Shown here piece after piece: positions 5,656-46,087 of a stretch of 64,000 bases of DNA. The stretch is from assembly GCA_050255995.1 (NCBI GenBank), contig JBFWIM010000001.1:709-64708 (forward strand), written 5' to 3'. How positions within the stretch are numbered: the first letter of the stretch is position 1; each line of letters starts with the position of its first letter. Under the pieces are notes generated by a model. That model was given only the letters and a program-made list of their open reading frames with translations, was not told the DNA's origin and searched no databases. A program made the position numbers and the translations under genes. This stretch comes from Intestinibacillus sp. Lineage in GTDB: Bacteria; Bacillota; Clostridia; Oscillospirales; Butyricicoccaceae.

Positions 5656-5694
5656 CGAACATATGTTGCAATTCCCGCCGGCGTGTGGTATTAT
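5656..5694 (+). promoter_or_regulatory. recA promoter with LexA (SOS/DinR) box
   Basis: CGAAC-ATAT-GTTGC at 5656-5669 overlaps -35 TTGCAA (5666-5671); 17 bp spacer; TG-extended -10 TATTAT (5689-5694). Confidence 0.8.
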
Positions 5695-15279: not shown

Positions 15280-15356
15280 GCCCTTGTAGCTCAGATGGAT
15301 AGAGCGACCGCCTCCTAAGCGGTAGGTCAGCGGTTCGAATCCGCTCAAGGGTGCCA
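15280..15356 (+). tRNA. tRNA-Arg(CCT)
   Basis: Cloverleaf GCCCTTG...ACCGC-CT-CCT-AA-GCGGT...TTCGAAT...CAAGGGT-G-CCA. Confidence 0.97.
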
Positions 15357-22361: not shown

Positions 22362-23552
22362 TCATGTTTTGGGGCGTGAGGCAAGCAGGCGCGGCGCGGT
22401 ATGGTCGATTGCGAACGCGCCGAGCGGCGCGGTCAGCAGGATGGAGAGCACGGCGAGTGTGAGCGCAAGGTTGCCGCAGGCCAGACCCATTGCGAGCGGC
22501 ACGCCGCCGACCGCCGCCTGTACGGTCGCCTTGGGCGTGTAGGCGATGGCGGTGAAGAGCCTTTCCCGCCGGGTCAGCGGCGTGCCTGTGACCGAAGCGC
22601 CCACGCCGGCCATGCGGAACAGCAGCGCGCCGAAGATCAGCGCAATGGCGGCGAGGCCGGACGCGATCGCATAGCGCGGATCCACCGCCGCGCCCACCAG
22701 TGTGAACAGCACGACCTCGGCCGCGACCCACAGGCGCGACATTTTGGCGGACAGCCGGTCCGCGAGTTCCGGGCGGGTGCGCAAAACGGCAAGTCCCATC
22801 GTCATGATGGCCAGCATGCCGGAAAACGGCACGTGAACAGCCTTCAGCGCTGTCTCGGCAGCGAGCAGCAGGAAGCTGATGGAAAGCAGCACCAGCACCT
22901 TCGCCGAGTCGCGCACATGCAGCAGGCGGAAGAATTTTGCAAACAGAACGCCAACGATCAAGCCCGCGATCAGGCCGAGCACGATGGACACCGGCACCTG
23001 CAGCAGGGTAAGCGGGGAGAAACTGCCGCCCGCAGCGATGCCGGTGGTCACAGTCAGCATGACGATGACGAAGACGTCGTCCACGGACGAGCCCGCCATG
23101 ATCATCTGCGGGATGGAGTGCTCCGTGCCTGCGCCGCGTTCCATCAGGGCAAGCATGCGGGGCACCACCACGGCGGGCGAGACCGCTGCAAGCACCGAGC
23201 CGAGTATGGCAGCCTCAATATACGTTACGCCGAGCAGCGGCGGGGCAAGTACGATGCAGCCCAGAATTTCAAACGAGGCCGGCACGAAGCAGAGCAGCAC
23301 GGCGGGTCGTCCGACACGCCGCAGCGCGGCCAGATCGAGCGCAAGTCCGGCGCGCAGCAGGATGACGACGAGCGCAAACTGGCGCAGCGGCGTGGAGATA
23401 TTCAGGACAGTTTGGTCGATTGCGTCGAAGACATACGGGCCAAGGATCAGCCCGGCCGCAATCATACCGAGCAGCGGGGGCAGATGGATGCGTGTGCACA
23501 GGCCGCCCAGGGCAAGGCCGAGCAGGAAGAGGAGCGCGAGGCTGGTAAGCAT
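22362..23552 (-). CDS. CPA1-family cation:proton antiporter
   Basis: ~12 TMs; ILLRAGL, SPAVVVP, SSVDDV motifs; true start ATG 23552. Confidence 0.9.
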   Translation of the reverse strand: MLTSLALLFLLGLALGGLCTRIHLPPLLGMIAAGLILGPYVFDAIDQTVLNISTPLRQFALVVILLRAGLALDLAALRRVGRPAVLLCFVPASFEILGCIVLAPPLLGVTYIEAAILGSVLAAVSPAVVVPRMLALMERGAGTEHSIPQMIMAGSSVDDVFVIVMLTVTTGIAAGGSFSPLTLLQVPVSIVLGLIAGLIVGVLFAKFFRLLHVRDSAKVLVLLSISFLLLAAETALKAVHVPFSGMLAIMTMGLAVLRTRPELADRLSAKMSRLWVAAEVVLFTLVGAAVDPRYAIASGLAAIALIFGALLFRMAGVGASVTGTPLTRRERLFTAIAYTPKATVQAAVGGVPLAMGLACGNLALTLAVLSILLTAPLGAFAIDHTAPRLLASRPKT

Positions 23553-23588
23553 AGGTTTAAAACCCCTTTCAACGTGTTTTAGGATAAC

Positions 23589-23689
23589 AAAAAAGCTGAC
23601 AACTATCCTGCAAACCATAAAATTTGCAGAAGTCATCAGCCCAAAAGGCGGTTCGGAGGCGATCCTCCGGGGCGAACCTCATGCCCCAT
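23589..23689 (-). promoter_or_regulatory. Fluoride (crcB-motif) riboswitch with overlapping intrinsic terminator
   Basis: Minus strand GGGGCAUGAGGUUCGCCCC...GAACCGCC-UUUU-GGGCUGAUGACUUCUGC; pseudoknot GAGGUU/GACUUC; terminator GCUGAUGAC/GUUGUCAGC plus U6; sigma-A promoter TTGACA (23733-23728), 17 bp, TATACT (23710-23705). Confidence 0.85.
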
Positions 23690-23780
23690 AAAATTGTCCT
23701 ATTCAGTATAGCATAAAAGACACAGCGTGTCAACGCATAGAAACGCCGGGAAGGACATGCCCTCCCGGCGTTTGCGCGGT

Positions 23781-23987: not shown

Positions 23988-24229
23988 TCCTTTTTCATAT
24001 CATACTCCGCCAAACAGACCGTGTCCACCGTATTCGCAGCGGCCGATTCCGGCACGAGAACGGGCAGGTCGTCCCGGGCGAATGGCGGCGTAAAACGGTA
24101 GACGAAATGCCAGCCGTTCCGCCAAAGATTGCGCCGGAGCGGCGCTTCGCCGCCGAGTGCCTTGCCGATACCGGAAAGGATCAGGCCGATTACCAGCATA
24201 ATGCAGCAGAACCTTACAGCGCTTTTCAC
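23975..24229 (-). CDS. Short membrane protein, possibly a truncated DUF4097-type gene
   Basis: N-terminal TM ending GIGKALGG; overlaps DUF1700 stop; third-gene position in a PadR-DUF1700 operon. Confidence 0.45.
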   Translation of the reverse strand: MKSAVRFCCIMLVIGLILSGIGKALGGEAPLRRNLWRNGWHFVYRFTPPFARDDLPVLVPESAAANTVDTVCLAEYDMKKECFI

Positions 24230-24846
24230 GGGCGATCCCTCCTTCGCTCAAACGGTTTTCGGCACAGGTTTACGCACCCGCGCGCAAGGGGTGGCAAAAA
24301 CAACATGCACAGCTTGAGAAACAGCAGCGCCAACAGCCCGGCGAGCGCCAGCAGCACAAGCCCTGCGCCGACCATGAGCAGGCCGGAGGCCGGCGTGTGG
24401 AACAGCGCGGCGATGCCGCCCCAAACCATGCCGATCGCCACCGCTCCGAGGATAATGGGGAAAAGCAGAATGCACAGCAGTACGGCAACCAGCGCGCCAA
24501 GCAGGCTAAGCCCCGCAGCGAGCAGCGGCACGCCAAGCGGGATAGCGAGCAGCACAATCGCCAGCAGCAGCCACGGGCTGATACCCCGCCGGACCGGACG
24601 GCTTTGCCGGGGAGGCTCGCCCCCGCCCGACGACTTTGCTCCATGCGGCGCAAGGTCGCGGTAATCGTTCAAGATGGCCTGCGCGACCGCTTCGGGCGAA
24701 CCAAGCCCGGCAATGGCCTCGGTCTCATGCTCCGGCCCCGCATCCGCAAGATAGTCTTCATAATACTGCATGGCGTTTTGCCGCTCCTCGGGCGGCAGCC
24801 CGGAAAGCGCCCGCCACAGTGCGGAGAGAAATTCGGCTTTATTCAT
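24226..24846 (-). CDS. DUF1700 domain membrane protein
   Basis: MNKAEFLSAL...YYEDYLAD...LGSPEAVA, followed by TMs. Confidence 0.9.
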   Translation of the reverse strand: MNKAEFLSALWRALSGLPPEERQNAMQYYEDYLADAGPEHETEAIAGLGSPEAVAQAILNDYRDLAPHGAKSSGGGEPPRQSRPVRRGISPWLLLAIVLLAIPLGVPLLAAGLSLLGALVAVLLCILLFPIILGAVAIGMVWGGIAALFHTPASGLLMVGAGLVLLALAGLLALLFLKLCMLFLPPLARGCVNLCRKPFERRRDRP

Positions 24847-25180
24847 TGTCCACCCCTCCGAAAAGTACAGTTTGTATCCGGTCGCGGTAATCCCGCCAGT
24901 CAATCCGGTACTTGGTCAGCTGTGTGCCGCCGAGCGGGGTCAGGCGATAATACCGCCGGTTGCGGCCGGCGCACTCCCGGCTGTAAGCCGTCAGGTAACC
25001 ATCCTTCAGCAGCCGGCGAAGAACGGGGTACAGCGAGGTTTCGGAAATCTCAATGACCTGCCGCAGGTCCTGCGTGATCTTGTACCCGTAGGCGCCCTCG
25101 CTGCCGGTCTGTGAGACGACCGACAGCACCAGGGCGTCAAGCAGTGATGCGCCAAAGCCGAAAGCCGCCAAACGTCTCAT
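24839..25180 (-). CDS. PadR-family transcriptional regulator
   Basis: LDALVLS, YGYKIT, ETSLYPVLRRL, GRNRRYYRLT. Confidence 0.92.
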   Translation of the reverse strand: MRRLAAFGFGASLLDALVLSVVSQTGSEGAYGYKITQDLRQVIEISETSLYPVLRRLLKDGYLTAYSRECAGRNRRYYRLTPLGGTQLTKYRIDWRDYRDRIQTVLFGGVDNE

Positions 25181-25308
25181 CCCTTTCTTTGTCTTCTTGC
25201 CAATATTATATGCAGAATAATATTGGCTGTCAAGCACTTCAGAAAAGATTTACAATTCCGCAATACATGAGACAACGCTATTCTCTGCACCCCTGTATCC
25301 GGCTATGC

Positions 25309-25351
25309 AAAACCGCCGGCCTGTCCACAGCCTGTGGATAAACCGGCGGTT
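25309..25351 (-). terminator. Hairpin/terminator after the tail-fibre-like gene, containing DnaA-box-like 9-mers
   Basis: Minus strand CCGCCGG-TTTATCCACAGGCTGTGGACAGG-CCGGCGG-TTTT. Confidence 0.7.
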
Positions 25352-25357
25352 CCACGA

Positions 25358-25996
25358 TTAACGGAATATGATGTAAAAATAGGGAATGTTGTTTGAATTG
25401 GTGTACAGGTACTGGCTGGAAACGTAAGTGACCTGAAAACCGTTTTCAACAACTGACAACCCAATTTTTGTGGGATCGTTTGCGATGTACTGGGGTTTGT
25501 TTGGCAGTGCGATACCGCCGTAGCAATAGTAGTTGCCGTTGCTGACATAGGTTGTGGCGCCGGAAACGCCGGTCAGCAGCACGGCCTTGGGCTGATACCC
25601 GAGATCGATGACGCGGTTTGTCGTGCCGTCGCCCGTGTAGGTGCCGATCTGCACCACCGCGCAGGACGCAACCTGGGTGAGCAGCGCGGCGTTATCCTGT
25701 TCCCGTGCGGCTGTCTCTGCCGCAAGTGCGGACTGATCGGCCTTGGCGTTCAGCTTTTCGGCGAGCGGCTGATCGAGCATGCTCTCGTGGATCGTGCCGC
25801 CGTAGGTCTGCGCGACGATCCCCTCGACCTTCGCGTCCAGCGCCGCGGCGTCATCCGCCAGGCCGTTGACCGAAAGCCGCAGAGCCTCGGCGTTGCCGTC
25901 AAAATATTGTTTCAGCTCCTCCGCTGAAAGCTGCGGCACATCGGCCAGCGCTGTAATCGGCGATGGAAGCGTTGTAAGACGGCGTTCTGTGAACAA
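25358..25996 (-). CDS. Orphan phage tail-fibre/receptor-binding-like protein (212 aa, TTG start)
   Basis: AAGGAGG (26011-26005) 8 nt before TTG 25996; N-terminal ITALADVPQLSAEELKQYFD; coiled-coil middle; C-terminal GTYTGDG..RVIDLGYQPKAV...YFYIIFR resembling phage fibre tip domains (by eye). Confidence 0.65.
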   Translation of the reverse strand: MFTERRLTTLPSPITALADVPQLSAEELKQYFDGNAEALRLSVNGLADDAAALDAKVEGIVAQTYGGTIHESMLDQPLAEKLNAKADQSALAAETAAREQDNAALLTQVASCAVVQIGTYTGDGTTNRVIDLGYQPKAVLLTGVSGATTYVSNGNYYCYGGIALPNKPQYIANDPTKIGLSVVENGFQVTYVSSQYLYTNSNNIPYFYIIFR

Positions 25997-26051
25997 TGGC
26001 TGTTCCTCCTTCATAAAATAGATACGAGTTACCGGACAAAGCGTGGTTTCT

Positions 26052-26080
26052 ATAATACGAACAAAGGTTCCTGTTGTCAA
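26052..26080 (-). promoter_or_regulatory. Sigma-A promoter with LexA box in the spacer
   Basis: Minus strand TTGACA, 17 bp, TATTAT; plus-strand CGAAC-AAAG-GTTCC at 26058-26071. Confidence 0.75.
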
Positions 26081-26225
26081 GTACCGTTTTGGTTTGGGAC
26101 AATACGACCCGCCACAAACATAAGGCAAGGGCGTTAGATTGAACGCCCTTGCATTGCAAATTTTTATCGCATTTGCAGAAGTCTGTCAAGACGGAGGGAC
26201 GCATCTGCACGTCCCCTATGGTGGT

Positions 26226-26627
26226 TCAGCGCCTGCAGCTTGGGCGGCCCGCATGGCTGTGCGCGCTACCGCGCCGCGCCGTGCCCGTTCTCTGATGGTG
26301 TGTGCACAGGGTATCCGGATCGCATTGCAGCGTACCTGCAAGCAGTGCGTCAACCTGCGCATCCGCCTCGCCCGACGCGCCCGGATAGAACGTGATGCCC
26401 GCGTCGCGCAGCGCGGCTCTTGCACCGCCGCCGATGCCGCCGCAGATCAGGGTATCCACCCCATGTGCACGCAGAAAGCCTGCGAGCGCGCCGTGCCTGC
26501 TGCCGTTGACCGGCACAATATGGCTCGCGTCCGCCAGGTCATTCTGCACTTCGTAAATTTTAAACTGTTCGGTGCTTCCAAAATGCTGAAACACTTGGCC
26601 GTTGTCATAGGTGACTGCGATTTTCAT
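26226..26627 (-). CDS. NifB/NifX-family (FeMo-cofactor-binding-like) protein
   Basis: MKIAVT...VFQHFG..EQFKIYE; LICGGIGGGA; C-terminal Cys/His. Confidence 0.88.
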   Translation of the reverse strand: MKIAVTYDNGQVFQHFGSTEQFKIYEVQNDLADASHIVPVNGSRHGALAGFLRAHGVDTLICGGIGGGARAALRDAGITFYPGASGEADAQVDALLAGTLQCDPDTLCTHHQRTGTARRGSAHSHAGRPSCRR

Positions 26628-26966
26628 GTGTTTTCCTCCGTGTCCGTATTGCTGTGTGACGGTTGCAGCGCTGCCGGGGCATACCGGAAAGCGCCGGCGC
26701 GCACGCGCCTGCATTTCCAAGGCGCGGTACATGGCAATACTGTATGCGCTACGGGGCAAAAAAATGTTTTGCCGGTACATAGCGCGCGGGATTCCGCCCC
26801 TCCTCCGAAAATTGTCGACTGCCGGAACTTTTTGGTTCCCATTTTGTTCATAGCTATGCTATAATAGGGGGCAGACAGGGGGCGCTGCACTGCGGCGACC
26901 CGCCGCGATGCAAAAGAATGCTCCGGAAAACAAATCAGCCGCCCGGCGGGCGATGGAGGGGAAACT

Positions 26967-27383
26967 ATGAAAAAGTTCTTACAGGAGTTCAGGGATTTCG
27001 CCCTGCGCGGCAACGTGATGGATCTGGCCGTCGGCGTCATCATCGGCGCGGCGTTTCAGGCGATTGTCAAGTCGCTGACTGACGACATCATTTCTCCGGT
27101 TCTCGGCCTGTTCACCGGAAAGAATTTCAGTGATCTCGCAGTGGATGCGTTCGGCGCGACCATCCGTTACGGCGCGTTTATTACGGCGGTCATCAATTTT
27201 TTGATTATGGCGTTTCTGGTCTTCCTGCTGGTGAAGGGCATGAACCGTCTGGCGACGCTTGGCCGCCGCAAGACGGAGGCGGCGCCCGCTGCCCCCACGA
27301 CCAAGGTCTGCCCCTACTGCCGCAGTGAAATCGACATCGCGGCGACCCGCTGCCCGCACTGCACCTCCCAGCTGGAGGAATGA
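26967..27383 (+). CDS. mscL: Large-conductance mechanosensitive channel with C-terminal zinc ribbon
   Basis: [21 protein letters not shown]; CPYC...CPHC tail. Confidence 0.95.
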
Positions 27384-27414
27384 GCGGCGCGGTAAAAATT
27401 TAATTCTGCAGGAC

Positions 27415-27452
27415 AAAGGCCCGCTTCGTCTGAAGACGAAGCGGGCCTTTTT
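27415..27452. terminator. Bidirectional terminator
   Basis: AAAGGCCCGCTTCGTCT-GA-AGACGAAGCGGGCCTTTTT. Confidence 0.85.
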
Positions 27453-27456
27453 TGCG

Positions 27457-27768
27457 TCAACCGTCGAACGGCAGCGGCTGGCACGCGAGATTATAGGCGA
27501 GCAAACGGCGCAGCCGGGTCTTTGCACGTTGCAAATGGCGGCATACCGCGGAGGGCGACACCCCCCAGCGCACGGCAATCTGCCGCTGGGACAGTCCCTC
27601 CAGATAATGCAGGCAAAGCGCTTCGTGCTGGCGTGCGGTCAGTTCGTCCTGCATTGCCCGGAAAAAGGCTGTCCGGAAGGCGGCGCGCCAGGCCGAATTG
27701 TCGCCTGCGGCGGACGCCTCATAGCGCAGCAGCGCCTCGCGCTCAAGAGCAGCGTCCGACAGCGCCAT
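27457..27768 (-). CDS. Sigma-70 region-4-only helix-turn-helix protein
   Basis: ELTARQHEALCLHYLEGLSQRQIAVRWGVSPSAVCRHLQRAKTRLR; no region 2; start overlaps the upstream ORF. Confidence 0.85.
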   Translation of the reverse strand: MALSDAALEREALLRYEASAAGDNSAWRAAFRTAFFRAMQDELTARQHEALCLHYLEGLSQRQIAVRWGVSPSAVCRHLQRAKTRLRRLLAYNLACQPLPFDG

Positions 27769-27979
27769 GGCTTTCCCTCTGGTCGTAATAGTGCTGCATG
27801 TCGTAAGCGGCACGGCGGCTTTCGCCCAGCATCCCGTAGAGCGTGCCGATGCGCTTTTTCAGCCTGCGGCGCAGCTCCAGCTGACGGGTGTTCTGCAGCC
27901 TGCAGCGCAGCTGGATGATGCGCAACTCAATCAGCGCGCCATTGACGCGGTATTCCTGCGCCATCTGTTGTAAAGTCAT
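27743..27979 (-). CDS. Hypothetical 78-aa basic helical protein
   Basis: AAGGAGG 7 nt before ATG 27979; overlaps the region-4 gene by 26 bp. Confidence 0.75.
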   Translation of the reverse strand: MTLQQMAQEYRVNGALIELRIIQLRCRLQNTRQLELRRRLKKRIGTLYGMLGESRRAAYDMQHYYDQRESHGAVGRCS

Positions 27980-27999
27980 GCAAATACCTCCTTGCAGTT

Positions 28000-28048
28000 A
28001 GAACGGATGTTTGAATATAATAATAACATCAAACGTATGTTCCGTCAA
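28000..28048 (-). promoter_or_regulatory. Sigma-A promoter with two LexA boxes
   Basis: Minus strand TTGACG, 17 bp, TATTAT (28048-28020); boxes AGAAC-GGAT-GTTTG (28000-28013) and CAAAC-GTAT-GTTCC (28030-28043). Confidence 0.8.
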
Positions 28049-28099
28049 GTAAAAAAAGAAAGCCCCCGCACCGCCAGGGTACGGGGGAACAAAAGCGCT

Positions 28100-34641: not shown

Positions 34642-35076
34642 CTATTGTACGTTTGGTGCGGAAGAGCCGGCCGAAGCGCTGATTTTATGCGGACGGCCGC
34701 TGGCGTACAGCTCGGCGCGAATGGCGGAGAACATGGTTTCCGCCATGTTCATCAGCCGCTGCACCTGACGCTCGGTCAACTCAAAGGGCAAGTCGGTGGG
34801 GTACCGCGTTTCAATATACAGGTTGTTGAGCGCGGCGCTTTCGTCCAGATATTCGGCAAACGACCGGTCGACCTGCACGGCCTGACGGCAGAGATAGGTC
34901 AGGTTATGGCCGTCGAAATGCCGTCCGGTTTTAAACAGCAAATAGCCCTTCAGCGCTTTTTCGATGGCCTGCTGGCAGTGGAAAGCGGTCATCGGCGGGT
35001 CGCCGCCCCAGGTCAGCAGAATACGGGCAGCCTGCAGGTCGGAGAGCGCTTTGTCCAGCCATTTGTAGTAGAACAT
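34642..35076 (-). CDS. HEPN domain protein
   Basis: FHCQQAIEKALKG, HNL, LYIETRYP. Confidence 0.9.
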   Translation of the reverse strand: MFYYKWLDKALSDLQAARILLTWGGDPPMTAFHCQQAIEKALKGYLLFKTGRHFDGHNLTYLCRQAVQVDRSFAEYLDESAALNNLYIETRYPTDLPFELTERQVQRLMNMAETMFSAIRAELYASGRPHKISASAGSSAPNVQ

Positions 35077-35092
35077 GCTGTCGCCGCCGCCT

Positions 35093-35404
35093 CTACGGCT
35101 TCTGCTCATATAGCACCGTCCCTTTCTTCTGGATTGCGGAAGCGTAGCTGGAGAAGTCCTCGGTCAGCTCTTCCCACTCGTCGCAGGAATACAGGAGCAG
35201 GTTGAACGGCACGGGCGAATCGATGGTCAGGTACAGCTCATGCAGAAGCGAGGGCTTGTCCACCTCGGGCAGGATGATGCAAAAATCAAGCGATTTGATT
35301 TCACTGGTGGACAGTGTGCGCTTTTCGCCATACAGAATGACCTTCTGCGGCGAGCAGTGGCGCAGGATATCCGACAAAATTGTTTGAGCCAGCTTTGAAA
35401 TCAT
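35093..35404 (-). CDS. Minimal nucleotidyltransferase (MNT)-like protein with degenerate active site
   Basis: PQKVILYG...LDFCII...KKGTVLYE fold signature; lacks GS and DxD. Confidence 0.7.
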   Translation of the reverse strand: MISKLAQTILSDILRHCSPQKVILYGEKRTLSTSEIKSLDFCIILPEVDKPSLLHELYLTIDSPVPFNLLLYSCDEWEELTEDFSSYASAIQKKGTVLYEQKP

Positions 35405-39067: not shown

Positions 39068-39143
39068 TGGAGCGGCTGACGAGGCTCGAACTCGCTACCT
39101 CCACCTTGGCAAGGTGGCGCTCTACCAGATGAGCTACAGCCGC
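39068..39143 (-). tRNA. tRNA-Gly(GCC)
   Basis: Minus strand GCGGCTG...CCACC-TT-GCC-AA-GGTGG...TTCGAGC...CAGCCGC-T-CCA; hairpin at 39037-39067 follows. Confidence 0.97.
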
Positions 39144-45880: not shown

Positions 45881-46087
45881 GAAAAGCAAGCCCTGCCCTG
45901 TTTGACAGCAGTCTTTTTTTAACCCACATTTTAGATAAGGGATTCCGGTATTAGAATTCCGCACACAAGTGCAGGCCTCCCGTCCCGGGACGGATGTTGG
46001 AAGCGCAGCGTGTGCGGATAGGAAACCCACCTGCTGTTCGTGCAGGTTACTAATCTGGCTGCATCGGCAGTGGCGGGGTTTGTTTTC
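45881..46087 (+). ncRNA. ssrS: 6S RNA (SsrS)
   Basis: Ends pair into a long irregular rod (GAAAAGCAAGCCCTGCC / GGCGGGGTTTTGTTTTC) with a central bubble and GGGATTCC/GGAAACCC; clostridial-type CCCACCTG...CAGGTT; G-U pairs favour the plus strand. Confidence 0.75.

Follow-up and report, generated by a model that had tools for sequence, protein, structure and literature searches.

The window (the whole 64-kb stretch of DNA that was analysed), from an uncultured bacterium of the Oscillospirales type, contained two separate transcription units, which probably represent two independent genes or units derived from mobile elements, each wired directly to LexA. Each unit is predicted to possess an upstream terminator and a near-consensus housekeeping-type promoter, overlaid by candidate LexA operators of the Firmicutes type, of which the fibre promoter has one and the regulator promoter two. 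The first unit would produce a short, phage-fibre-like protein of 212 amino acids, belonging to a chromosomal Oscillospirales family that usually lacks a LexA box. The second unit would produce a translationally coupled pair, composed of a hairpin protein of 78 amino acids and a region-4 helix-turn-helix (HTH) protein of 103 amino acids, for which direct LexA control may have replaced the XRE control seen in distant relatives. In undamaged cells, LexA would occlude RNA polymerase at both promoters; upon DNA damage, RecA-stimulated self-cleavage of LexA would release both. The separate units, contexts and controls suggest that the SOS regulon recruited these genes of the mobile-element type independently, and the two units appear to adjoin only in the lineage of the window.

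Promoters and candidate LexA operators

Two minus-strand promoters reported in the initial annotation, composed of TTGAC(A/G), 17 bp and TATTAT with a palindrome in the spacer, were retrieved at positions 26080-26052 and 28048-28020. The promoter features and the reference box of recA were as follows:

26052..26080, minus strand: promoter of the fibre-like gene (TTGACA, 17 bp, TATTAT), conserved in the orthologous loci L001 and L068
28020..28048, minus strand: promoter of the 78-aa/region-4 operon (TTGACG, 17 bp, TATTAT), conserved in L001, L069 and L013
26058..26071: candidate LexA operator in the spacer of the fibre promoter, GGAACCTTTGTTCG, with the 12-bp core GAACCTTTGTTC at 26059-26070
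28030..28043: candidate LexA operator 1 in the spacer of the regulator promoter, GGAACATACGTTTG, with the core GAACATACGTTT at 28031-28042
28000..28013: candidate LexA operator 2 of the regulator promoter, CAAACATCCGTTCT, with the core AAACATCCGTTC at 28001-28012
5656..5669, plus strand: reference LexA box of the recA-recX promoter, CGAACATATGTTGC, overlapping the recA -35

The string TTGAC-N18-TATTAT occurred exactly twice in the 64-kb window (0.00 matches expected), both times at these promoters. Operator 2 of the regulator promoter, situated just 3' of the -10 and over the predicted transcription start, was absent from the initial annotation. The latter had also placed the same motif in the recA promoter at 5656; the box is indeed shared, but recA has GTTG rather than GTTY, so that the statement is true with one mismatch. 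When scored with a crude consensus matrix built for this analysis, the best four LexA-like 14-mers in the 64 kb were those at recA (5656; 16.5 bits), 26058 (16.2 bits), 28030 (14.9 bits) and 28000 (13.6 bits), the fifth-ranked one scoring 10.4 bits. The bare count of GAACN4GTTY in the window (4 strand matches versus 2.97 expected) was not above chance, in contrast to the placement of the matches, which clearly departs from randomness, and each of the three operators showed 3-4 mismatches to the 14-bp LexA consensus, with the GAAC/GTTC core intact or one-off. The lexA gene was not found in the 64-kb window.

Phylogenetic footprinting across four lineages revealed conserved half-sites and variable inner bases in the operators at the regulator promoter. 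Indeed, operator 1 reads GAACATATGTTT in L001 and L011, GAACATACGTAC in L069 and AAACGTTCGTTC in L013, and operator 2 reads AAACAAGCGTTC in L001, AAACATATGTTC in L069 and AAACAAGTGTTC in L013. Synonymous divergence (dS) among the orthologues in which the half-sites are kept amounted to 0.5-0.9. Similarly, the box of the fibre promoter has kept GAAC and GTTY in three lineages, with CTTT, ATTC and TATT as the inner four bases; the fibre promoter and its 5' leader are, however, conserved throughout (85% column identity), and conservation of this box is therefore not uniquely telling. Both promoters thus appear to carry conserved operators of the LexA type, laid over the core promoter.

The regulator pair

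The second unit lies between a citrate synthase gene and a convergent mscL gene and comprises the following features:

27743..27979, minus strand: gene coding for a basic alpha-helical hairpin protein of 78 amino acids, ending in an HYYD motif
27457..27768, minus strand: gene coding for a sigma-70 region-4-only HTH protein of 103 amino acids
27412..27450: hairpin terminator serving both mscL, which is convergent, and the region-4 operon, read from the sequence
28063..28087, minus strand: terminator that ends the citrate synthase gene and shields the regulator promoter from upstream transcription

The small helical protein and the region-4-only protein ascribed earlier to this operon were recovered, and the region between the two promoters indeed contained a NifX-like gene and mscL, as had been described, followed by the 103-aa and 78-aa genes. 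The 78-aa and 103-aa genes share 26 nt, at the end of the former and the start of the latter, and this overlap is kept in L001 and L069. A thin contig of run X25, which is probably RNA, covers positions 27448-27848 and crosses the junction between both genes; its end at 27448 falls at the hairpin terminator shared with mscL.

The 78-aa protein belongs to a family of 176 representative clusters and had no match in Pfam or NCBIfam. Its structural model (pLDDT of 91) consists of helices at residues 3-30 and 34-62, and its gene displays a dN/dS ratio of 0.06-0.22. A tblastn search with a family member of the integrative-element type yielded one unannotated phage match and none in plasmids. Residues 21-89 of the 103-aa protein match positions 97-164 of an ECF model of 165 positions, i.e., region 4 and the linker only, and NCBIfam gave a weak match to a 'positive control sigma-like factor' (E-value of 2e-5). 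Sigma region 2 was not found in this protein with Pfam and NCBIfam, so that it is not a sigma factor of the type of Xpf, the activator cited as a parallel in the initial annotation. The 78-aa and 103-aa proteins most likely act jointly as a small transcription regulator and not as a sigma factor.

Three other assignments were considered for these proteins and rejected. Identity of the 103-aa protein with YlxM/UPF0122 was marginal in Pfam (24.4 bits versus a cutoff of 22.7), failed in NCBIfam (24 versus 80 for YlxM), and is contradicted by the position of the gene amid citrate synthase and mscL and not next to ffh. A two-subunit sigma factor, of which the hairpin protein would supply region 2, is opposed by the model of the 78-aa protein, a simple coil of two helices that differs from a sigma-2-like bundle and retrieved none but generic folds, and by ten longer members of its family that lack a region-4 domain. 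Lastly, a profile match of the 78-aa family to residues 193-229 of the RNA polymerase beta' subunit (E-value of 0.007) was taken as a chance match between charged helices.

In the distant relatives L066 and L067, the pair is faced by a divergent gene coding for an XRE repressor, and its promoter contains three ACAC-N5-GTGT operators (0.07 expected), in the same layout as in the window but with a different palindrome. This arrangement is that of a phage or integrative-element switch. It also indicates that the operators at this promoter can belong to other repressors, and the palindromes of the window might be bound by another repressor, or by the region-4 protein in autoregulation, the genes then falling outside the SOS response. 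The deviation of the boxes from a perfect LexA consensus would agree with this explanation. It is nevertheless unlikely, as the half-sites are exactly those of Firmicutes LexA, with the best match of the window at recA; as both boxes are kept in L013-15 despite the missing region-4 gene; and as the motif is also present at the unrelated fibre promoter.

The fibre-like gene and its family

The first unit is monocistronic and comprises the following features:

25358..25996, minus strand: gene coding for the fibre-like protein of 212 amino acids, with an N-terminal fibre-type motif, a shaft and a tip
25308..25351, minus strand: terminator hairpin 3' of the fibre-like gene, AACCGCCGG...CCGGCGGTTTTG, read from the sequence
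26125..26152, minus strand: hairpin resembling a terminator, between the 3' end of the NifX-like gene and the fibre promoter

The gene starts with TTG at 25996, preceded by an AAGGAGG ribosome-binding site (both kept in L001 and L068), and has a GC3 of 0.65, below that of the neighbouring genes. Its dN/dS ratio versus orthologues amounts to 0.14-0.29, and the range for the fibre-like, 78-aa and 103-aa genes together (0.06-0.29) reveals purifying selection on all three. The PadR gene downstream has a consensus promoter of its own (25205-25233).

The fibre-like nature of the 212-aa product, as put forward in the initial annotation, was borne out by several lines of evidence. Residues 18-58 gave a weak match to a PHROG family annotated as tail fiber protein (phrog_14469; E-value of 2.9e-5), and BFVD matches were to tail-fibre/DUF7483 proteins, with E-values down to 3e-6. 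The AF2 monomer model (pLDDT of 80) consists of helices and a beta-sandwich, with a helical shaft at residues 25-111 and a C-terminal beta-sandwich tip at residues 115-211. This tip is 37-39% identical over about 100 residues to the fibre tips of L039 and L040. The latter fibres, of 427 and 419 amino acids, are encoded after TMP, LysM, YqbQ and Baseplate_J in tail modules of the PBSX type from related Clostridia. The 212-aa protein is hence fibre-like, with a tip that is homologous to bona fide tail-fibre tips. Its N-terminus lacks similarity to the N-termini of the L039 and L040 fibres. Neither Pfam nor NCBIfam gave a match, tblastn against 50,697 phage records returned zero matches, and a PDB fold search with the model found nothing below an E-value of 0.01. 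No tail or baseplate module was found around the gene, which is free-standing between the NifX-like and PadR genes.

The family to which this protein belongs is chromosomal and widespread in Oscillospirales, with free-standing members of 130-250 amino acids. In 30 of the 46 GTDB loci of the family, as well as in five metagenome loci, the next gene is a large, convergent one coding for an S-layer-homology (SLH) protein. In Agathobaculum or Butyricicoccus, this neighbouring protein has a conserved C-terminal domain. Phage genes and LexA boxes were absent from these SLH-adjacent loci, and a search for a common upstream motif among their family members found none. DUF7483 was weakly matched by 16 of 30 family members, and conservation within the full-length subfamily is highest in the N-terminal region. 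The scan of GTDB representatives gave a best match of 40% identity and no close match for the species of the window, which is abundant in runs X1 and X4, and a metagenome scan added only two loci; broad alignments were too diverse to serve in locus searches. A description of the pairing of fibre-like and SLH genes was not found in the literature searched, nor was anything relevant on DUF7483 or on the combination of LexA, tailocins and Clostridia. In the lineage of the window, one copy of the family apparently sits away from an SLH gene, with a putative LexA box in its promoter.

One speculative reading, to which we assign a low probability, is that the family represents short host fibres resembling phage receptor-binding proteins and functionally tied to the adjacent SLH/S-layer protein. 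They might act as a soluble receptor mask, protecting kin from adsorption of phages or tailocins, or serve S-layer-targeting particles of the PBSX type as an exchangeable fibre. One copy would then have become wired to LexA beside a hairpin/region-4 cassette that swapped XRE for LexA, and its production would therefore coincide exactly with the induction of prophages or tailocins.

Two units or one dispersed particle

The initial annotation had tentatively interpreted both units as the trigger and the receptor-binding part of one particle resembling a gene transfer agent (GTA) or tailocin. Its observation that no prophage is in view agrees with the present analysis, in which a scan of about 47 of the roughly 65 ORFs of the window turned up neither an integrase or capsid gene nor any other gene of phages. 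In addition, PADLOC found nothing, and Rfam gave no RNA family within 25-28 kb.

A single domesticated PBSX-, tailocin- or GTA-like particle, consisting of the region-4 trigger and the fibre with the structural genes elsewhere in the genome, would account for the LexA-type operators at both units and for a fibre tip homologous to those of fibres from the PBSX-like tail modules found in related Clostridia. It would likewise agree with the conservation of the N-terminus within the full-length subfamily, which suits docking on a conserved partner, and with the relatives of the pair that are located behind an XRE repressor and several operators, a layout that recalls xre/xpf of PBSX. Yet, the distributions of the two units are uncoupled, and the anticipated co-occurrence failed when assessed at the level of loci and their flanks of at most 10 kb. 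Indeed, L069 carries the regulator pair and lacks the fibre gene at the locus, L013-15 carry the 78-aa gene alone, without a region-4 gene, and about 50 loci of the fibre family all lack the pair within 10 kb. Furthermore, the usual neighbour of the family is an SLH gene and not a phage gene, the N-terminus of the fibre is not homologous to those of PBSX-like fibres, the regulator lacks sigma region 2, and no structural gene was found in the 64 kb. A single particle is hence quite improbable, and two independently recruited units remain the preferred explanation. Inert leftovers of decayed mobile elements, with motifs that are accidents of AT-rich spacers, would suit the chance-level GAACN4GTTY count and the low GC3 of the fibre gene, but this idea is very improbable and largely refuted by the purifying selection on all three genes, by the conserved promoter, ribosome-binding site, start codon and terminators, by the restriction of all motif matches to two promoters of unique architecture, and by the thin representation of both genes in probable RNA runs.

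If LexA controls both units, two uncharacterised gene families derived from mobile elements would be added to the SOS regulon of poorly studied anaerobes. This would also provide a clear example of regulatory rewiring, as a single cassette would be controlled by XRE or by LexA, depending on the lineage. The conserved association of fibre-like with SLH genes in many Oscillospirales genera, common gut genera among them, forms a second lead and bears on the way in which these bacteria handle phages or tailocins at their surface.

Comparison with known systems

In the Rhodobacter GTA, the genes for fibres and head spikes are dispersed. A fibre encoded at a distance from the structural genes is the shared idea, but the phylum and the regulators differ, and neither a structural cluster (in 64 kb) nor co-occurrence was found. 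Clostridial tailocins and phages, as in the case of diffocin and SlpA, possess receptor-binding proteins that target S-layer proteins. The fibre family shares with these a domain of the fibre-tip type and a recurrent genomic link to surface proteins of the SLH/S-layer type; unlike them, its members are free-standing host genes next to a surface-protein gene and not part of a tail cluster.

Single-domain HTH proteins of the region-4/LuxR type, such as GerE and YlxM/UPF0122, resemble the 103-aa protein in being region-4-like, about 100 amino acids long and without a core-binding domain, whereas the 103-aa gene differs from that of YlxM in not being located next to ffh and in being coupled to a hairpin protein. 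The SOS operon yneA-yneB-ynzC of B. subtilis encodes YnzC, a helical-hairpin protein of 77 amino acids. Similarly, the second unit is an operon under candidate LexA control that encodes an alpha-hairpin protein of about 78 amino acids, although the partner gene differs, the 78-aa protein had no Pfam match, and YnzC was not among the best 60 of its 101 PDB profile matches.

PBSX, a defective prophage of B. subtilis, contains the Xre repressor, the sigma-like activator Xpf and the fibre XkdV. A predicted damage-inducible logic, a small sigma-region-4 protein and a fibre tip homologous to those of PBSX-like fibres are points of likeness, as is the XRE repressor with several operators that faces the pair in the L067 relatives. 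However, the regulator of the window lacks region 2, direct LexA operators take the place of Xre, no tail cluster is in view, and the fibre is free-standing with an unrelated N-terminus.

LexA/DinR-controlled promoters of B. subtilis, including those of recA and yneA, contain a palindrome of the CGAAC-N4-GTTCG type. Compared with the SOS (LexA/DinR) regulon of Firmicutes, including gut Firmicutes (Cornish et al. 2014, PMC3998124), the putatively regulated genes of the window differ in belonging to uncharacterised families and not to repair genes. They resemble this regulon in the presence of such a palindrome over the -35/-10 region of a sigma-A promoter, with two operators at one promoter, and in the matching box of recA, a canonical SOS gene in the window.

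Genes, promoters and LexA-type boxes

The fibre-like gene and the regulator pair occupy the following positions; promoters and boxes were read from the sequence.

25358-25996 (minus), fibre-like gene, 212 aa, TTG start at 25996 preceded by AAGGAGG
26080-26052 (minus), fibre promoter, TTGACA-17-TATTAT
26059-26070, box GAACCTTTGTTC in the fibre-promoter spacer
26226-26627, NifX-like gene (Pfam)
26967-27383 (plus), mscL (Pfam)
27457-27768 (minus), gene of a 103-aa protein, sigma-70 region 4 only (Pfam)
27743-27979 (minus), 78-aa gene, with a 26-nt overlap with the region-4 gene that is kept in relatives
28048-28020 (minus), regulator promoter, TTGACG-17-TATTAT
28031-28042, box 1 GAACATACGTTT in the regulator-promoter spacer
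28001-28012, box 2 AAACATCCGTTC, directly past the regulator -10 and absent from the initial annotation

The length of 212 aa was adopted because an upstream ATG is missing in the orthologues. According to Pfam, PadR and HAAS genes lie downstream of these loci and citrate synthase and SpoIID genes upstream; as noted initially, no prophage is in view, the approximately 47 ORFs scanned with Pfam across the window returning housekeeping functions only. Purifying selection acts on the fibre-like gene and on both genes of the regulator pair (dN/dS 0.06-0.29), and all three have sequences in probable RNA runs. The organism is environmental (metagenomes from landfill, solid waste, sludge, and aquifer).

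The common architecture and spacer palindromes ascribed to the two promoters were borne out. Indeed, TTGAC-N18-TATTAT occurs in the 64 kb at these promoters only (0.00 expected), indicating significant placement; the bare count of GAACN4GTTY (four strand matches versus 2.97 expected in the window) is not significant. When LexA-like 14-mers were ranked window-wide with our own crude consensus matrix, the recA site at 5656 (CGAACATATGTTGC), which overlaps the recA -35 upstream of the recA-recX operon and to which both promoters had been likened, came first (16.5 bits), followed by the sites at 26058 (16.2), 28030 (14.9), and 28000 (13.6); the fifth scored 10.4. Since a terminator-like hairpin precedes each promoter (28087-28063 after citrate synthase for the regulator; 26152-26125 after the NifX-like gene for the fibre), these represent separate units.

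The promoters were compared with syntenic contigs from related species (L001, L068, L069, and L013).

Fibre promoter, window: TTGACA ACAGGAACCTTTGTTCG TATTAT
Fibre promoter, L001: TTGACA AACAGAACATTCGTTTG TATTAT
Fibre promoter, L068: TTGACG GACAGAACTATTGTTCG TATTAT
Regulator promoter, window: box 1 GAACATACGTTT, box 2 AAACATCCGTTC
Regulator promoter, L001: box 1 GAACATATGTTT, box 2 AAACAAGCGTTC
Regulator promoter, L069: box 1 GAACATACGTAC, box 2 AAACATATGTTC
Regulator promoter, L013: box 1 AAACGTTCGTTC, box 2 AAACAAGTGTTC

In the fibre-promoter box, GAAC and GTTY are invariant, and the inner four bases and flanks vary; both regulator-promoter boxes are retained in all four lineages. As synonymous divergence among the lineages amounts to 0.5-0.9 or more, box conservation reflects real constraint, albeit less specifically at the fibre promoter, which is conserved as a whole with its leader (85% column identity). 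The boxes of both promoters are very probably LexA operators; LexA binding and damage induction are inferred, and the in silico evidence supports this SOS reading well. The fibre-gene 5' leader of approximately 55 nt (25997-26051, minus) is nearly as conserved as the promoter in three lineages, which suggests an additional regulatory element.

Several neighbouring features were recorded. A PadR-HAAS-small protein-PspC module (24226-25233, minus; perfect TTGACA-17-TATAAT promoter at 25233-25205) immediately follows the fibre-like gene and is syntenic in L001, where a fluoride riboswitch (RF01734, 44.5 bits; 23620-23695, minus), upstream of a Na_H_Exchanger-family gene (22362-23636), is conserved too. 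The window further contains a 6S RNA gene (45887-46083, plus) and tRNA genes at 39071-39143 (minus) and 15280-15353 (plus), the latter adjoining a low-GC stretch (15-17 kb, GC 0.48-0.49) with a GGDEF gene. At 34642-35404 (minus), a gene with a HEPN domain and the 103-aa gene upstream of it, which has no Pfam match, overlap; the two, also present in L013 and L069, probably form a toxin-antitoxin pair of the HEPN/nucleotidyltransferase type.

The fibre-like protein and its family

The 212-aa protein has no match in Pfam or NCBIfam, and its residues 18-58 match a PHROGs tail-fibre family (E 2.9e-5). An AlphaFold2 model built on a 30-sequence alignment (pLDDT 80) combines long helices over residues 25-111 with a C-terminal beta-sandwich over residues 115-211 that is predicted confidently (pLDDT ~90-97). 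Foldseek found nothing convincing in the PDB; in BFVD, it retrieved tail-fibre and DUF7483 proteins of viruses, with E values as low as 3e-6, and 16 of the 30 family members match DUF7483 weakly. The tip domain also ends 419-427-aa proteins in GTDB genomes (37-39% identity over ~100 residues; N-terminal parts unrelated), directly preceded by genes for a tape-measure protein, a LysM protein, a YqbQ-like protein, and Baseplate_J; in PBSX-like tail modules, this slot is where the fibre is encoded. The protein is thus fibre-like, as annotated initially, structure prediction agreeing. Such modules (L039:2053-10345, L040:1441-10288; also L041 and L055) comprise tape measure, LysM, YqbQ-like, Baseplate_J, an adaptor of ~200 aa, and the 419-427-aa fibre.

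The family is small in the protein database, with 48 clusters, all of ~130-250 aa, and is widespread in Oscillospirales genomes (50 loci; Butyricicoccus, Agathobaculum, Flintibacter, Pseudoflavonifractor, Flavonifractor, Intestinimonas, and Muriventricola, among others), in chromosomal context. The only conserved neighbour, adjacent in 30 of 46 loci at 50-290 bp, is a convergent gene for a large SLH-domain protein (600-1300 aa, with signal peptide); some loci carry mirrored duplicate pairs (SLH>, <small, small>, <SLH). Pairing was seen in L016-L063 (e.g. L046:9881-12949, L025:9914-13235) and in L002, L006, L008, and L009. The SLH-adjacent relatives possess neither a GAAC-N4-GTTC box nor a common upstream motif; the window gene and its L001 and L068 orthologues form an exception, with a LexA box, no SLH neighbour, and slightly lower GC3. 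Agathobaculum members (L017:290-480, L020, L021, L022, L023) share a conserved hairpin (GCGCAAGAGCAA...TTGCTCTTGCGCTTTTT; no Rfam family match), after which come a TATTAT-like box and a ~100-nt GC-rich leader. Tip homology and SLH linkage favour a cell-surface or phage-interface role for the window protein, a role that does not explain why this protein has no signal peptide.

One system or two

The initial annotation had proposed that both loci may be parts of a dispersed phage-derived particle, with their co-occurrence to be tested. This model is not supported, unlike the promoters and boxes, their SOS reading in silico, and the fibre-like and region-4 annotations. The L069 locus runs citrate synthase, 78-aa gene, region-4 gene, mscL, and NifX, and then lacks a fibre gene; L013-15 keep the 78-aa gene and both boxes, with neither region-4 nor fibre gene; and in HMM searches of all fetched fibre-family loci, homologues of the 78-aa and region-4 proteins were lacking up to 10 kb away. 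Distributions at locus level speak against one system. A structural cluster for such a particle may be situated elsewhere in the genome, the comparison having been made at locus level. Two independent mobile-element-derived units, each brought under direct LexA control, are the most likely interpretation.

The regulator pair

For the 78-aa protein, a two-helix hairpin is predicted with confidence (pLDDT 91); its fold matches are generic only. When 1.84 billion representative proteins were searched with a profile, its family came to 176 clusters, mostly of 65-100 aa with a C-terminal HYY(D/E)R; ten longer members contain no region-4 domain. A weak profile match (A4) to E. coli RNA polymerase beta' (residues 193-229, E 0.007) was judged chance, due to charged-helix similarity. 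A probable RNA contig (run X25, 27448-27848) spans the junction of both genes and ends at the terminator. A small transcription regulator is the favoured function of the pair.

The overlapping pair also occurs in distant human-gut relatives (L066 and L067, 53-55% identity). There, three ACAC-N5-GTGT palindromes (0.07 expected) lie ~50 bp apart in the promoter region of the pair (L067:5830-5955; L066), opposite a divergently oriented gene for a 131-aa XRE-family HTH protein (L067:5410-5805, minus) that has one palindrome inside its own promoter spacer. This layout, in which the LexA boxes are replaced, is that of a phage or integrative-element (ICE) switch, which speaks for the pair being a regulatory cassette of mobile-element type, with different repressors in different lineages. 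Finally, the 103-aa protein, whose annotation as region 4 only was confirmed, matches in region 4 and its linker alone and is therefore not a sigma factor; single-domain region-4/LuxR-type HTH regulators offer the better comparison.
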